Source: Bacteroidota bacterium
Lineage (GTDB): Bacteria > Bacteroidota > Bacteroidia > Bacteroidales > JAAAOM01
Reading direction: 5' to 3'
Assembly: GCA_009908855.1 (NCBI GenBank)
Contig: JAAAOM010000033.1
Span: 7,200 to 71,199 of the forward strand
Length of the DNA stretch: 64,000 bases
This document shows, one piece after another, positions 3,029 through 26,708 of this stretch (positions within the stretch are counted from its first letter, which is position 1; each line of letters starts with the position of its first letter). A model generated the notes under the pieces. That model was given only the letters and a program-made list of their open reading frames with translations, did not search any database and was not told the DNA's origin. The translations under genes were made by a program, and so were the position numbers.

Positions 3029-3418
3029 TAAATTGAGAACAGCTGGTCCATTTTCCATTTACATGGATTAAATGTGCGTTAAGCTAAAATTGTCATAACT
3101 ATATCCAGATCAAATTGGATTTATACACAATCTTATCTGAACGAGGATGGTTTGACAAAACAAACCCGTACAAATGGCTGAAAAAAACATGATGTTTATG
3201 TATGGCGGCTTAAATCCGGTGGGAGAGCTAAAGATTTTGAATTTTTATCATCCAATGACCTGCCTAAAAAGGGTGTATTAAGAAAATTTACTGCATTACA
3301 AATCCTGAAGTACCCGTGACGGCATTTGAAAAAAAACTTTTTAAATCCATTTGTGAAAAATATCAACCAAATCGTTCCTTGCGATTATCATTATAAAATA
3401 TTTGTTATTTTTGAACCC

Positions 3419-3590
3419 TCATTGGTTTTCAATCCCGATAGCTGTCGGGAGAAATTAAAAGGGAATGCCGTGAAATTCAGCAACAGTTCCCGCTGCTGTG
3501 AGCTCCGGATAATGTTTTAGTAATTTGCCACTCTTAATCAATTAAGGGGAAGGTGCTAAAACAGGAGTAAGTCAGAAGACCTGCCGATGA
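3419..3590 (+). promoter_or_regulatory. Cobalamin riboswitch
   Basis: AAAAGGGAAT-GCCGTGAAATTC, CCCGCTGCTGTGA, GCCACT, GGGAAGG and AAGTCAGAAGACCTGCC (B12 box) in canonical order; TATTTTTG -7 promoter box at 3406-3413. Confidence 0.92.
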
Positions 3591-3793
3591 AACATAGATA
3601 TTGCAGTCTGCGGAGAACAGATAACTAATCAGAACAATGTTTCGTTAGCCTTCCTCCTGCATTGTATGTTGCAAAATCTAAAAAACTGTGTTTATCAATA
3701 ATAGTAGTCATGGTAAATAAAATACTAATTGACTTTTTGAGCCAAATTATCATGCCTGAATGTGATGTTTCGTTAACAATAAATAATTAATCA

Positions 3794-22653: not shown

Positions 22654-23053
22654 AGTTTTATGGTTTAAATTAAATAACAGAGAACTATATGTGTTATTTA
22701 TCAATTGATTAACTAGAGGCTTATAGATTTATAAACCATAAATAAACATTTTTTTTATAAATTCCAATTTTGACTATCCTGAATTATCCCTATGTTTTTC
22801 ATAATAAGTTAAAGCCCCTTAGGGATAGCTTGTAATGGTACTTCTTGCAATCAAAAGCTTTAGGCGACTTTTTTCAATGGTGGTGGGCAGAACCACATTT
22901 ACCGCAGACCTTGATCTGCTTAAGGCTGTAATTTTAATAAGTGCTGTACAAATTTCATCTGTTTATTACCTGAAGGTGGCAAAAAGGTACGGAAAACCGG
23001 AAAGATGATACTGCAAATAGGGCCCCAGGTTTTTAAATAGTCCTGCAACAACG

Positions 23054-23263
23054 CTAAATGACATGATACAATCATTAAATGAGGTGCAACATTGATTGAA
23101 CGACCGGCGCAAACCGTTAAACCAGGTGTAACAATGATTGAATGACTAAATTAAGTTGTTAAACGAGGTTGGCATGTTGTTAAACGGAGTTGGCTTTTTA
23201 TTCAATGCATTTCCGAAAAGGCTTAACAATGCTTAATGTTAACTGAATGATATGGCATTATTT
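23054..23263. repeat. Degenerate tandem array of 10 x 21 bp, consensus YTRAAYGAN-N12
   Basis: Units begin at 23054, 23075, 23096, 23117, 23138, 23159, 23180, 23201, 23222 and 23243 with no indels. Confidence 0.8.
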
Positions 23264-23485
23264 GAAAAAACCGGTCAATCTTCGCCCAACCTTGAAATTT
23301 ACCGGTAGCTATATTTGTAAATTTTGTATTTTGTTGTGAACAAATTCTTCATATTTAATGGGCAAAATAGTTATAAATGCAATAACGATATAATGATGTT
23401 TTGCCTGCAATAGCAGCAGAGTGATATAGCAACAAAAATTCTGATTTGATTTTGATTAAGTAAACTAATTGGTTAACTTTACGGA

Positions 23486-23827
23486 ATGATTAGAAAGATA
23501 ATTGCGTACAAAGACAATTTTGTGAACTTCTATAAAAGTCAAGATTTACAAGTTCAGGAAAAAATTGAATATGTACTTGATTTGGTGAGATTTGAAAGAC
23601 AAGTACCGAAAAAATTTTACAAATTACTTGAAAATACAGATGGGATTTGGGAAATAAGAGTAATAACGACTTTTAAAAGCATTCGGATTCTGTGTTTTCA
23701 AGATAAAGGTAACCTAGTAGTGCTGACAAATTGCTTTCTAAAAAAATCGCAGAAAACTCCAAAAAAGGAGATAAAAACTGCAGAGAATTTGAAAAAAGAG
23801 TATTTGACAGATAAATACGGAGGATAA
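23486..23827 (+). CDS. RelE/ParE-superfamily toxin (HigB/Gp49-like)
   Basis: DGIWEIRV, RILCF, VVLTNCFLKKSQKTPKKEI; toxin-first order. Confidence 0.9.
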   Translation: MIRKIIAYKDNFVNFYKSQDLQVQEKIEYVLDLVRFERQVPKKFYKLLENTDGIWEIRVITTFKSIRILCFQDKGNLVVLTNCFLKKSQKTPKKEIKTAENLKKEYLTDKYGG

Positions 23828-23830
23828 ATA

Positions 23831-24121
23831 ATGAAAAATGTTACTGATTTCGAGGACTTATTAAAAGACAAGTATGGAGAAAAAGGTACTCCATCAAGAG
23901 ATAAGTATGACGCTGATTCTCTATCTTTTAGATTAGGAATTATGCTTAAAGAGGCGAGAAAAGAGGCGCAAATTACCCAACAGGAACTTGCTGCAAAAAC
24001 CGGGACAAAAAAAAGCTATATCTCACGGATTGAGAGAGGTCAAAGTGATATCCAGATTTCGACTTATTACAAATTGATTGAGATGGGATTGGGTAAACAC
24101 CTAAATATTTCGATTGGATAA
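23831..24121 (+). CDS. XRE-family HTH antitoxin (HigA-like)
   Basis: ITQQELAAKTGTKKSYISRIERG; 3 bp after the toxin stop. Confidence 0.9.
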   Translation: MKNVTDFEDLLKDKYGEKGTPSRDKYDADSLSFRLGIMLKEARKEAQITQQELAAKTGTKKSYISRIERGQSDIQISTYYKLIEMGLGKHLNISIG

Positions 24122-24130
24122 AAAGCTACA

Positions 24131-24263
24131 GCAGGCAACACACGGTATAGCCAATAAGGGTTTCAATGGTATGCGAAGGTTTGTAGTCCGCTTCAAATTT
24201 TCGTGTAACTTGATAGGTGATTAGCCCGCAATCCCTTACTGGCCATACCCCTGTCCGTTGGGC
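24131..24263 (+). repeat. attC-like recombination site
   Basis: GCAGGCAAC...GTTGGGC ends; 17-bp inner dyad 24144-24160 / 24233-24249 whose two mismatches are A.C on the top strand and G.T on the bottom strand. Confidence 0.78.
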
Positions 24264-24380
24264 CATTTCTTGAATTTCGCAGCGAAAGAAAAATTGCGGG
24301 AGAAATGAGTATTGAGTATAGATTTTCTATATTTTTTGGGTTATATTTGTACAGATTAATGTACGTTAAAATGTATTGTC

Positions 24381-24632
24381 ATGTTAACAACAACGATTAC
24401 AGATTTTAGAAAAGATATAAAAAGATATCTGGATAATGTTACTCAAAATTTTGAGACTTTGATTATAAATCGGGGAAAAGATACTGGAGTCGTGATAATG
24501 TCATTAGATGAATATAATTCGTTATCAGCTACCCAACATGAATTATCTAGTAAGGCTAATGAGAAAAGGCTTGATTCAGCAATAGAAAAATTCAATAATG
24601 GTTTATCATTTGAAAATGATTTGCCTGAGTGA
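24381..24632 (+). CDS. yefM: Phd/YefM family antitoxin
   Basis: TDFRKDIKRYLD, VVIMSLDEYNSL; upstream TATATTTG promoter box overlapping a TGTACA/TGTACG operator-like pair. Confidence 0.92.
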   Translation: MLTTTITDFRKDIKRYLDNVTQNFETLIINRGKDTGVVIMSLDEYNSLSATQHELSSKANEKRLDSAIEKFNNGLSFENDLPE

Positions 24633-24889
24633 TGAAATATGTATTTGTAGATGAGTCTTGGGAAGATTATTTATATTGGCAAAATACCGATAAAAAGGTT
24701 GGTAAAAAAATAAATAAACTGTTGAAAGATATTGCTCGCCAACCTTTTTCAGGATTAGGAAAGCCAGAGCCACTAAAATATAAATACATAGGATTTTGGT
24801 CTCGTAGAATTACAGACGAACATAGATTAATTTATAAATACCGAGAAAATGAAATTTTAATTGCTAAGTGTCGATTCCATTATGATTAG
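24632..24889 (+). CDS. yoeB: Txe/YoeB family toxin
   Basis: WEDYLYWQ, GLGKPEPLK, WSRRITDEHRLIY, CRFHY; TGATG overlap with yefM. Confidence 0.95.
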   Translation: MKYVFVDESWEDYLYWQNTDKKVGKKINKLLKDIARQPFSGLGKPEPLKYKYIGFWSRRITDEHRLIYKYRENEILIAKCRFHYD

Positions 24890-25221
24890 ATGGTTAATTT
24901 TCATGACTTTTCTACTATCTATTGGAGTAAATAATCAGGATAAATTATTAGAAATTGTGAAGTTTATAATACAAGAATTGTTTTAGATTAGATTCTTAAA
25001 TGCATCTTTGGAGGCTGAAACACAAATAATGCCTTTTTTCGAATACAGAATAACATTAATAATTGTAGAGAAATGAAATATAATTTTGTACTTATATAAA
25101 GCGATGGTGAAAGCGGCTTCTGGGTTTATGCCCAACGTTAGCAAAAATGCCGTGAGAGCGTCGTACAAGAAAAACCACCAGTAAATTACCATATTGGTAA
25201 CATTTTCGTATCTTTATCAGT

Positions 25222-25320
25222 AGATTGATTACGCATATAAACTATTTGAGACAGTGGGTTTTTATTAGATTCATTGGTACGCACACAGATTATAATAAAA
25301 TTGACGCAGAAAAAATTTGA
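25222..25320 (+). pseudogene. higB: 3' remnant of a HigB toxin gene
   Basis: Reads RLITHINYLRQWVFIRFIGTHTDYNKIDAEKI*, the typical HigB C-terminus; the 5' part is missing directly behind the TTACCATATTGGTAA dyad. Confidence 0.85.
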
Positions 25321-25682
25321 TTGCTACGAATATTAAAGTGATTAAAAACGAGGATGATTACCAAAAAGCTCTTGAAAGATTTGAGGTGATATTTGATGCC
25401 GCGATTGATTCTCCCGAAGGAGATGAAGCGGAGATTTTAAGCATCTTGATTGAGAAGTACGAGGATGAGCATTATCCGATTGGACCACCTGATCCGATTG
25501 AAGCGATTAAGTTTCGAATGGAGCAGATGGATATGAAAAAAAGTGATTTGGCTAAGATAATTGGATACAAAAGTAGAGTTTCCGGGATTTTTAGCAGAAA
25601 GCGTAAATTGACTTTGCCGATGATACGTAAGCTGCATGAAACTTTAAAAATTCCATACGAATCATTGATTGCAGATTACTAA
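25317..25682 (+). CDS. higA: HigA antitoxin (HTH); expected ATG appears as ACG at 25326
   Basis: IKNEDDYQKAL, LIEKYEDEHYPI, PDPIEAIKFRMEQ, RKLTLPMIRKLH. Confidence 0.88.
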   Translation: MIATNIKVIKNEDDYQKALERFEVIFDAAIDSPEGDEAEILSILIEKYEDEHYPIGPPDPIEAIKFRMEQMDMKKSDLAKIIGYKSRVSGIFSRKRKLTLPMIRKLHETLKIPYESLIADY

Positions 25683-25697
25683 TGGCGCATTTTGCTA

Positions 25698-25960
25698 ATC
25701 GAGTAGATGGCTGACAGGATTGTAGCCCTGCCGGTGCAACTTTCACAACTTGTCCCGCACCTTTGGTCGGGGCCACCTACCCCAAAAGCTTTCGGGAAAT
25801 CACGTATACGCCGATTCTCCAAATCAAAGGGAAATACTAACTTAAAAAGTTAGAATACCTGCTTTTTCAAGCGGGTATTGCGTAAAAACAGGAGAGACGG
25901 AATGATAATACGCAAGAAGTGATTCATAGACCCGTTTTTTTCAGCCTGCTAATGGAGACG
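25698..25960 (-). mobile_element. 3' remnant of a group IIC-attC-type intron (IEP C-terminus, degenerate domain V, domain VI)
   Basis: Minus strand: frameshifted SISRLKK-RVYESLLAYYHSVSP, then GAATCGGCGTATACG (cf. GAACCGCCGTATACG), TGTGAAAG and terminal CATCTACTCGAT joined to TAGC of the attC-like end. Confidence 0.78.
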
Positions 25961-26099
25961 CTCACTCCCCGGATAAAATGACAAGCGCCCTAACACCTTG
26001 AAATAGAATGGAATATTATTTTACACTAAAAGTGTAAACCTATTTAAACAAAAAGGCCAGGAGGTACGTGTTATTTAATATTCATTTGCACGGATAAAT

Positions 26100-26474
26100 A
26101 GAGAACCTTTCGCTGAATACTCTTCCCAAGTGATAGGTTTATGTAAGACTGTTAAAATAAAAGGATTTGTAACGCCAGTGATTTATAGTAATGTTTATTA
26201 CTTATTGAGACAAACAGCCAAGCATGACAAAGTGATTGTTAATCTTAAGCAATTACTAACAATTACAGATATCTTGAATATGGATAGAGAAGTAGTGAGC
26301 AATGCCTTAAATTCCCGATTTAGCGATTTTGAGGATAGTTTACAGAATTTTGCAGCAATGAAAAATGGGGAAATTGATGTAATTCTGACACGTAATTTAA
26401 AAGATTATAATAAAAGTGAGATTGGGGTATTAACACCAGAATCATATATCAAATCGATTATAGCCAGCCGCTAA
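26100..26474 (+). pseudogene. 5'-truncated PIN-domain (VapC-like) toxin
   Basis: REPFAEYS...DFEDSLQ...ILTRNLKDY; the N-terminal DT(N/D) strand is absent, there is an in-frame stop at 26076, and no antitoxin is visible. Confidence 0.82.
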
Positions 26475-26543
26475 TCGAGCAGGAAGTCGCCCGACATAGC
26501 CTGGTGGTGCATCGCTCACAACTTGTCCCGCACCATTGGTCGG
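26474..26543 (-). mobile_element. Second group II intron 3'-end remnant
   Basis: GCCGCTA|ATCGAGCAG junction parallels GCTA|ATCGAGTAG; 26516-26543 matches 25743-25770 at 27/28. Confidence 0.7.
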
Positions 26544-26708
26544 AACCGAGATTTTTGTTGAGCAATCTGATAGGTTCAAAGCGTATGCAAATCGCACGAT
26601 CCAAACCTATTGTTCAGCGCAGCGGATGCCATACTGCCTTCCGTTAAATGACGGGCGATTGAAAATATCATACTACTCTTTTAAGCCCGGATAAACACAT
26701 ATTTTTAT

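Follow-up and report, generated by a model that had tools for sequence, protein, structure and literature searches.

The locus

The window analysed here, meaning the whole 64,000-nucleotide (nt) stretch of contig JAAAOM010000033.1 from a Bacteroidota bacterium (assembly GCA_009908855.1), carries at 22705-26708 a cluster of toxin-antitoxin genes that holds what are probably two remnants of a group IIC intron. All genes of the cluster are co-oriented on the plus strand (Gp49/HigB-like and HTH_3, Phd and YoeB, a further HTH_3, and PIN_3), and the cluster is flanked by a 3-keto-disaccharide hydrolase gene and by dnaB, both on the minus strand. Between the second HTH_3 gene (25317-25682, plus) and the PIN_3 gene (26130-26474, plus) lies a stretch that is GC-richer than its surroundings and runs on the minus strand from 25698 to ~25986. 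This stretch, here called relic 1, has the make-up of a 5′-truncated and decayed 3′ end of a group IIC intron, and a second piece, relic 2, lies antisense to the PIN_3 gene.

Architecture and decay of relic 1

Read along the minus strand, relic 1 begins with a protein tail, followed by domain V and a linker hairpin, and closes with what is left of domain VI and the terminus CTACTCGAT, which ends at 25698. Each of the elements listed for this strand in an earlier reading of the DNA (the original prediction) was recovered, and domain V, linker, domain VI and protein tail align collinearly with intact introns. The domain VI remnant with its terminus (25698-25746, minus) is 90% identical over 51 nt to an intron of G099, a relative from the same order (E 3.5e-13, blastn). 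Its expected bulged A is position 25704, 7 nt from the 3′ end; the distal hairpin retains its fold, but two mismatches weaken the basal helix, and the minimum free energy (MFE) fold is non-canonical.

Domain V (25773-25817, minus) was delimited by alignment with the genome's own intact intron and with the intron of G261. Its 5′ strand, GAATCGGCGTATACG at 25817-25803, has the triad CGG in place of CGC, where the intact introns of the same genome read GAACCGCCGTATACG, just as the original prediction had quoted. About 20 nt have been inserted or substituted in the loop and 3′ strand, only ..GGTGG remains of the latter, and the domain is lost from the MFE fold, with 21 nt still matching the G261 domain V at 90.5%. 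A 34-nt domain V with a CGC triad and a 2-nt bulge is no longer present; the homology is clear, and the function appears to be lost. Between domains V and VI lies a small hairpin (CCCG...CGGG; 25753-25772, minus), which had been taken for one of the palindromic inserts. A linker hairpin with variable loops also lies between domains V and VI in the full-length introns of G141, G074, G031 and G226, and folds in that of G141. The linker of relic 1 is therefore evidently native to the intron lineage and no foreign insert.

The protein tail (25842-25986, minus) is read in two frames; it covers the last ~45 codons of the intron-encoded protein and ends at a stop codon at 25842-25844. Its peptide, ...SISRLKK / RVYESLLAYYHSVSP..., is split between the frames by a run of seven A at 25935-25941. 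In tblastn, 25986-25930 aligned with the C-termini of the full-length intron proteins of two relatives at 42-47% identity over 15-19 aa and 25940-25869 with an intron-protein C-terminus at 37.5% over 24 aa, in keeping with the proposed likeness of the frameshifted peptide to a maturase C-terminus. These ~45 codons are all that is left upstream of domain V; the 5′ GUGYG, domains I-IV and the rest of the reverse transcriptase (RT)/maturase gene are gone. The 5′ limit falls somewhere within 25953-25986 and is stated as a range because 25954-25990 can be read as a domain I fragment or as protein codons. The former was suggested by a hairpin similar to one in the G099 intron; blastn aligned only 17 nt (E 4.7), and the segment reads equally as protein codons. 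The same ambiguity attaches to CTTGT at 25986-25990, a possible remnant of the 5′ exon.

Relic 1 is assigned to group IIC because it is homologous to intact class-C-type introns of its own genome and of order-level relatives. To judge from its sequence it is a dead remnant, unable to splice or move, a reading to which, together with the insertion into an attC-like hairpin proposed below, a probability of roughly 80% is given.

Further copies in the same genome

The intron is multicopy in its own genome, where five identical intact 3′ ends lie at contig ends, each scoring 47.5 bits against Rfam Intron_gpII (RF00029) and terminating in CCTACTCGAT followed by T. A search of the genome with the 311-nt region around relic 1 recovered four further pieces, on contigs C22 (250 nt), C51 (60 nt) and C20 (40 nt) and in the window at 26500-26543. 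The C22 copy is 88% identical to relic 1, and its protein tail aligns with the C-terminus of a full-length intron protein at 50% over 24 aa (E 0.001, tblastn). Its A run differs in length, giving a frameshift of opposite sign; its domain VI folds canonically, and the changes in its domain V are C-to-T substitutions that keep G-U pairs. The copy matches introns in 29 of 401 order-level genomes, only over domains V and VI (G099 intron, E 5e-18), and its 5′ 120 nt had no match outside its own genome, either elsewhere among the 401 genomes sampled from the order or in three family relatives. Domains I-IV are missing from relic 1, relic 2 and the C22 copy, and all three are dead.

Several observations count against reading relic 1 as an intron remnant. 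Its protein matches are short and, taken alone, weak (E 0.18-0.26). Relic 1 and the C22 copy have nearly the same 5′ limit (within ~30 nt), which is unexpected under random deletion. Rfam Intron_gpII scores neither relic: there was no match at the gathering score in the window and none in 25300-26400 at E up to 10, where other families gave only hits at chance level, so that the Rfam check suggested with the original prediction came back empty for the sequence as it stands, and C52 and C22 are absent from the eight genome-wide matches at E up to 1. The intact introns of G099 themselves reach only 38.7 bits against a cut-off of 40. The silence of Rfam at relic 1 would suit a chance resemblance or another repeat family, such as repetitive extragenic palindromic (REP) sequences or miniature inverted-repeat transposable elements (MITEs), with no derivation from an intron; the matches of relic 1 and the C22 copy to the G099 intron (E 3.5e-13 and 5e-18) and the collinearity of the parts with intact introns effectively refute it.

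The shared 5′ limit bears on another explanation, that a unit of 255 nt has been retained, for example as a terminator in a 3′ untranslated region, a small RNA or a mobile unit without an open reading frame (ORF). The window and C22 copies, at 88% identity, each follow directly on a replication gene (dnaB and dnaG, respectively), share an identical 65-nt stretch that holds two hairpins and, on the C22 side, preserve G-U pairs in domain V and a canonical domain VI. In the window copy, however, domain V and the domain VI base are lost, and the frameshifts of opposite sign in the A run are as in neutral slippage. The 5′ 120 nt were found in no other sampled genome of the order and in none of the three family relatives, no domains I-III lie nearby for action in trans, and a clean run of 65 nt at 12% divergence is only marginally unusual (~0.05 by our own estimate). 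Retention of such a unit is judged very improbable, and decay of a dead intron is the preferred reading.

The surroundings of the other copies offer some further observations. The C22 relic (G000:C22:28042-31279, locus 1487-1737) begins at the dnaG stop codon; at its other end, 15 nt separate it from the true stop of a HepT-like (HEPN) gene that is frameshifted and has an MNT nucleotidyltransferase as its partner; dnaB and dnaG are thus alike in having a relic and antisense toxin-antitoxin genes behind them. The C51 relic (G000:C51:55198-58257, locus ~1500-1560) consists of 60 nt of domain VI only, behind the end of a lipoyl-synthase-like gene, and an antisense ORF from the other side crosses the junction and stops at a TAG within the relic. 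The sole copy in the genome with an intron 5′ end lies on contig C17 (18,300-19,620, minus), where the protein gene is cut at about codon 138 by an IS200-like tnpA pseudogene. The 5′ exon of this broken intron is a different hairpin with a G-run, read by eye as GCCTAAC...hairpin...TTGT|.

Full-length relatives and their target

The elements in related genomes are real introns, with open RT/maturase frames of 450-464 aa and matches to group-II-D1D4-3 at 109 and 54 bits, and the intact ones fold a canonical domain V with a 2-nt bulge and a domain VI with a bulged A. G099 carries two complete introns in tandem and G261 one; in each case the 5′ exon closes with GTGT or TTGT, and T is the first base of the 3′ exon. 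Pairing between exon-binding site 1 (EBS1) and intron-binding site 1 (IBS1) had been proposed as a check on full-length copies, and in five introns a putative EBS1 loop does covary with the exon (loop:exon ACAA:TTGT, ACAC:GTGT, ACAG:TTGT, ACAT:GTGT and ACCT:TGGT).

The ~140 nt before each G099 intron are homologous to window positions 24124-24271 (minus), where an intact and unoccupied hairpin resembling the attC sites of integrons lies behind the Gp49/HigB-HTH cassette. With R1, a covariance model built on this hairpin family, the empty site scores 150.1 bits (E 4.9e-40), and it is homologous to occupied sites in G099, G157, G298 and G051. Its intron target reads ...CCGTGTGT|TGCC at 24138|24137, that is ...GTGT|T. 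Full-length members of the lineage separate the two T of a GTT box, in the context (T/G)TGT|T; the box forms the 3′ foot of an AAC...GTT hairpin that stands behind cassette genes. Among the matches listed, 5 of 36 hairpin copies hold an intron at exactly this point. Of nine introns examined, seven have a 5′ exon that R1 detects, one of the seven lying on a Chryseobacterium plasmid; the two that escape it are the C17 site and the short hairpin preceding an Adhaeribacter intron. By a rough count, a hairpin is detectable by blastn in 17 of the 29 genomes that carry the intron lineage, compared with 156 of 401 in the full sample; the 12 misses are neutral, as blastn recognises the conserved variant alone.

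In a tree of intron proteins, those of G099 and G261 group with introns of Chryseobacterium and Adhaeribacter plasmids (100/99), and two integron-borne proteins pair separately (95/99). The tree held 14 sequences, with only two reference proteins of IIC-attC introns, the class that homes to attC sites, and two outgroups on very long branches; it does not resolve how the Bacteroidota clade, the integron-borne pair and the Bacillota class C proteins are related. The label of IIC-attC type given by the original prediction thus holds for behaviour, since strand and target are the same, and not for descent as far as this small tree of relatives' proteins goes, in which they fall outside the clade of the two integron-borne ones. 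The lineage would accordingly be described as behaving like IIC-attC introns, and its homing to the GTT box plausibly reflects convergence with, or deep kinship to, those of Proteobacteria.

Two further observations concern hairpin sites in relatives. In G099 (C23:51300-58000), stretches of ~900 nt between the tandem introns and hairpin sites are AT-rich and have no ORF of at least 50 aa on the cassette strand bar one of 50 aa; they are cassettes without an obvious gene. In G194 and G226, which belong to different families, the same foreign sequence (AACTAAATCCGCC...GCGGATAG) stands directly after the GTTG of a hairpin site and may be the end of another element using the same target.

The hairpin family, its arrays and their recombinases

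The hairpin is widespread. A blastn search with its 114-nt core gave matches, at up to 96% identity, in 156 of the 401 genomes sampled from the order; these include 134 of the 342 good-quality genomes and represent 120 of the 236 genera. An alignment of 25 copies describes an imperfect hairpin of ~147 nt, with AAC and GTT boxes paired at the foot, unpaired spacers of 4 nt on one side and 1 nt on the other, and a stem of ~17 bp. Ten of the 34 consensus pairs show compensatory changes, among them one flanking AAC/GTT (CG 6, UG 6, UA 6) and three pairs of the stem in which nine sequences have exchanged both partners. AAC and GTT are invariant or nearly so. On the gene strand R′ reads GTTGGGC, and the box on the R′′ side fits RYYYAAC only partly; R boxes of the attC kind (RYYYAAC/GTTRRRY) and extrahelical bases are found in the family and in the empty site at 24124-24271. 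An identity with the FopS small-RNA family of Bacteroides was considered and excluded, as FopS RNAs are ~65-70 nt long and have been entered in Rfam (PMC11697453). Rfam itself had no match to the empty site at E up to 10.

Beyond the order, the hairpin occurs on Chondrinema and Persicobacter replicons (4 of 72,556 plasmid records), and the family is also present on Cytophagales and Flavobacteriales replicons. In the Chondrinema record it heads 15 co-oriented small genes, with weak R1 matches in the intergenic gaps. The phage collection searched held no match. The plasmid-replicon matches, together with the nearest intron proteins, point to Bacteroidota as the probable host phylum of the order.

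At E below 3e-4, R1 finds 11 sites in the window's own genome, and several of these lie at contig ends. For G155, a complete genome, the count is 121 hits (150 candidates scored), so that arrays reach at least 121 hits in one genome; among the matches listed, 13 lie elsewhere and the rest fall within 3,682,240-3,956,924, a span of ~275 kb, all but one on one strand. A 7-kb sample of this array has a site behind each gene or gene pair, and in G031 nine sites occupy 7 kb beside a recombinase gene (array at G031:C1:476,804-543,049). One site per cassette in co-oriented arrays is thus the arrangement in both genomes. Shorter, 92-nt variants of the hairpin lie beside the G031 recombinase (C1:536000-547000) only ~375 nt apart, so the cassettes there are very small. 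Cassette insertion outside att sites has reportedly been described in a preprint, which may bear on scattered single cassettes.

In all four genomes examined (G155, G031, G099 and that of the window), an array has a tyrosine recombinase gene at its upstream end, and this gene runs in the direction of the cassettes. Its distance from the array is ~0.65 kb in G155, measured from a weak partial site, 0.6 kb in G031 and 0.85 kb in G099; on contig C1 of the window's genome it is 1.8 kb, with two genes between. The array recombinases match the NCBIfam model 'site-specific tyrosine recombinase/integron integrase' (247.6 bits, cut-off 220), and that of G099 falls below the integron-integrase model TIGR02249 (223 against 265). 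Aligned with IntI1, they are without both IntI-specific insertions, and hence without the additional IntI domain, and carry an N-terminal extension of 80-100 aa. The recombinase of the window's genome (G000:C1:2403-4481, minus) has 693 aa; over its last ~270 residues it shares 39% identity with the array recombinases of G099 and G155, and a second, weaker core-binding-like segment lies upstream. We put at even odds a cassette system native to Bacteroidota and integron-like in kind, made up of ~147-nt hairpins in arrays, an Xer/IntI-like recombinase without the IntI domain and a class C intron clade of its own.

Relic 2 and the point of insertion

Relic 2 (26474-26547, minus) consists of a linker hairpin, a diverged domain VI and the terminus CTGCTCGAT, and is 86% identical to relic 1 over 44 nt, the piece at 26500-26543 being the one recovered in the genome search. 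Neither domain V nor domain VI folds, and its last base is the third base of the TAA stop of the PIN_3 gene, a toxin gene truncated at the N-terminus (Pfam PIN_3 38.3 bits, profile positions 28-114 of 115). Its 5′ side abuts a putative 5′ part of an attC-like hairpin, AAC box and first arm (26548-26652, minus), assigned weakly by eye against the family consensus and missed by R1 at E up to 10. The box reads GTTAAAT on the gene strand (26643-26649), and the 3′ arm is gone, as if one deletion had taken the intron 5′ part and the second arm of the hairpin together.

Both relics are antisense to a cassette gene, an orientation given for relic 1 in the original prediction. Relic 1 opposes the HTH_3 antitoxin-like gene (Pfam HTH_3 25.8 bits) and relic 2 the PIN_3 gene, and both have the arrangement of bottom-strand insertion opposite the cassette gene, between gene and site. 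On the gene strand their junction is exactly ...GCTA|AT, which lies 15 nt past the stop codon in relic 1 and 0 nt past it in relic 2. The 3′ exon of relic 1 (25683-25697, plus; ...TTTTGCTA| on the gene strand), read directly, starts 1 nt past the HTH_3 stop and would be the gene-proximal half of the presumed R′′-equivalent box, its first flanking base on the minus strand being T (25697). Both 3′ exons start with TAGC, and the T|AGC start recurs in 4 of the 25 members of the hairpin-family alignment. The window has two occurrences of the junction motif CTRCTCGATTAGC, at 25694-25706 and 26470-26482 on the minus strand, where 0.06 would be expected; none of 100 shuffles reached two.

For relic 1 these junctions are set against other observations. 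Its 3′ exon, GT|TAGCA, fits GTTRRRY at only five of seven positions, and the half-site is without the R boxes and unpaired bases of an attC hairpin. No remainder of a hairpin site was found beside relic 1 by R1 with filters off (25900-26130, E up to 10), and the DNA fold there is unremarkable. Even the empty site at 24124-24271 folds no better than shuffles as a single sequence (z -0.91). The terminus followed by T is class-wide, occurring also in introns behind ordinary Bacillota genes, so the junction alone is no proof of an attC-type target. Integron integrases by TIGR02249 stay below the cut-off, at a best of 100 bits in the window's genome and of 132 bits per stretch in five relatives, and searches of this genome and of six relatives turned up no canonical one.

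These points bear on an alternative in which the relic is of class C but entered an ordinary terminator-like hairpin between convergent genes, the likeness to attC being coincidental. Class C introns of Bacillota plasmids are likewise tail-to-tail with an antisense gene and end in CCTACTCGAT then T; R1 detects no hairpin site beside the relic 1, C22, C51 and C20 relics; and the genome has yielded no canonical integron integrase. The lineage itself argues otherwise, as seven of the nine 5′ exons examined are R1-type hairpins. Directly beside relic 2 is the putative AAC arm of such a site, the gene cluster holds an intact one 1.4 kb from relic 1, and the neighbours are co-oriented toxin-antitoxin genes, as in the arrays of relatives. 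A coincidental terminator target is accordingly regarded as unlikely.

Insertion into an attC-like hairpin is preferred, with its strength differing between copies. The claim of insertion exactly into R′′ is direct for the intron lineage, good for relic 2 and, for relic 1, an argument from the 3′ half-site and analogy; the T|AGC at the lineage's GTT-box position bears it out on the 3′ side, while the remainder of the hairpin is not found beside relic 1. The further claim that the junction marks real attC structures keeps its support from a lineage that enters hairpins with AAC...GTT boxes and loses the part that rested on the junction itself, the terminus and T not being attC-specific.

The gene cluster

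The other genes of the cluster fit a set of cassettes. The first (23486-24121, plus) holds the Gp49/HigB-like toxin and HTH_3 antitoxin genes (Pfam Gp49 63.4 bits, HTH_3 48.8 bits), and this toxin is 83% identical to that of a cassette present twice in the G155 array. It is followed by a Phd/YefM antitoxin and YoeB toxin pair (24381-24889, plus; Pfam 61.5 and 131.8 bits) in the orientation of the other cassette-like genes. Directly upstream of the HTH_3 gene next to relic 1, frame translations reveal a HigB-type toxin remnant (24950-25321) of which only the last ~22 codons are left (..IRFIGTHTDYNKIDAEKI). The sequence GTTAGCAAAAATGCC at 25137-25151, the inverse of the relic 1 3′ exon, was considered as a cassette boundary and dropped, as it lies within this apparently degraded gene.

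At the upstream end of the cluster, in a 780-nt gap, 23155-23196 contains two tandem 21-nt units (GTTGTTAAACG.GGTTGGC.T) preceded by two ATTGATTGAA(C/T)GAC-like words; it could be a candidate recombinase-binding or attI-like region. The words TATATTTG at 23309-23320 and 24341-24348, upstream of the first two toxin-antitoxin cassettes, fit the Bacteroidota -7 promoter motif, TAnnTTTG, which suggests that these two cassettes carry their own promoters. Elsewhere in the window, a transfer-messenger RNA (506-901; 171.6 bits) and a cobalamin riboswitch (3406-3602; 101 bits) are both ordinary.

Proposed history and significance

The following history would account for relic 1. To go by its relatives, the intron would have entered an attC-like hairpin behind a toxin-antitoxin gene, by reverse splicing into its bottom strand in single-stranded form. 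Its target would have been chosen as in the relatives, by the hairpin, by a pairing over 4 nt between the EBS1 loop and (T/G)TGT and by T as the first 3′-exon base, and it would have landed in the GTT box, separating its two T, in the orientation opposite to the cassette gene. A later deletion of ~1.6 kb probably took away the larger part of both the protein gene and the hairpin site, along with domains I-IV. Point decay then set in, as seen in the A-run frameshift, the domain V triad, the 3′ strand of domain V and the mismatches at the base of domain VI. The recombination site of the relic 1 cassette would thereby have been destroyed, and relic 2 would have done the same to the PIN cassette. 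As the relics would have destroyed their two sites, the integrase-less cassettes beside dnaB would be frozen in place.

The relic itself is ordinary: group II introns are often found truncated, and their occurrence in attC sites has been described before. What gives it value is that a retroelement that recognises folded single-stranded hairpins repeatedly chose the same point of one hairpin family, and so acts as an independent witness; that point corresponds to the choice of IIC-attC introns in integron attC sites. The hairpin arrays and their unusual recombinase are a more novel lead than the relic, and together with the intron's choice of target they make a claim testable: Bacteroidota would have large cassette arrays of their own, with a recombinase that lacks the hallmark domain of IntI. 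If true, the range and enzymology of integron-type gene capture would widen, and many 'hypothetical gene islands' of the phylum would be explained. Standard integron searches appear to miss such a system.

Comparison with known systems

The literature covered, which did not extend to subscription journals, yielded no account of arrays of this kind and none of attC-homing introns in Bacteroidota. In the accessible part of the IntegronFinder 2.0 paper, Bacteroidetes are represented by integrases without sites and by one complete integron in Salinibacter. For IIC-attC introns, the accessible parts of two sources give the rule of insertion into the bottom strand, opposite to the cassettes, at TTGT/T in R′′ (PMC3001079, PMC7923331). 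Class 1 integron introns behind blaIMP-4 and aadA2 in Klebsiella plasmids (NZ_CP052763.1 and NZ_CP095559.1), with intI1 nearby, likewise lie tail-to-tail with the gene and have ...CCCGAT|TAGA.. junctions.

The lineage described here resembles these introns and S.ma.I2 of Serratia marcescens in its class C domains V and VI, its use of the bottom strand, its junction ...YCGAT|TAG.. and its target TTGT/T in the GTT box. It differs in its hosts (Bacteroidota, not Proteobacteria), in its proteins, which are 40-43% identical to the integron-borne ones, and in the hairpin family it enters. Like relic 1 in what survives of them are the attC-associated fragments UHB.F1, H.ha.F1 and H.ha.F2, of which, in the part of the source available, only a frameshifted 3′ end lies within a cassette array without an integrase, UHB.F1 being likewise opposite to the cassettes (PMC7923331). 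The same text places them in canonical attC sites of Proteobacteria or halophile metagenomes, unlike relic 1, and assigns H.ha.F1 and H.ha.F2 to class IIB (PMC7923331). With terminator-homing class C introns the lineage shares recognition of a hairpin and a short IBS1/IBS3, the same terminus and the same type of domain V, whereas its own hairpins have AAC...GTT boxes, stand in co-oriented arrays and are entered in the stem.

The arrays, for their part, compare with sedentary chromosomal integrons and with clusters of attC sites lacking integron integrases (CALINs). The attC sites of sedentary chromosomal integrons are repeats of the VCR type. Unlike these integrons, the arrays have hairpins with a central part strongly conserved across many families (up to 96%), an R′′ side with only a partial match and a co-directional recombinase with an N-terminal extension and without the IntI domain; recombination at their sites is predicted from sequence. 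They share with sedentary integrons and CALINs imperfect hairpins of ~90-150 nt with AAC/GTT boxes and an asymmetric spacer, more than 100 co-oriented sites, toxin-antitoxin cassettes and a tyrosine recombinase at one end.

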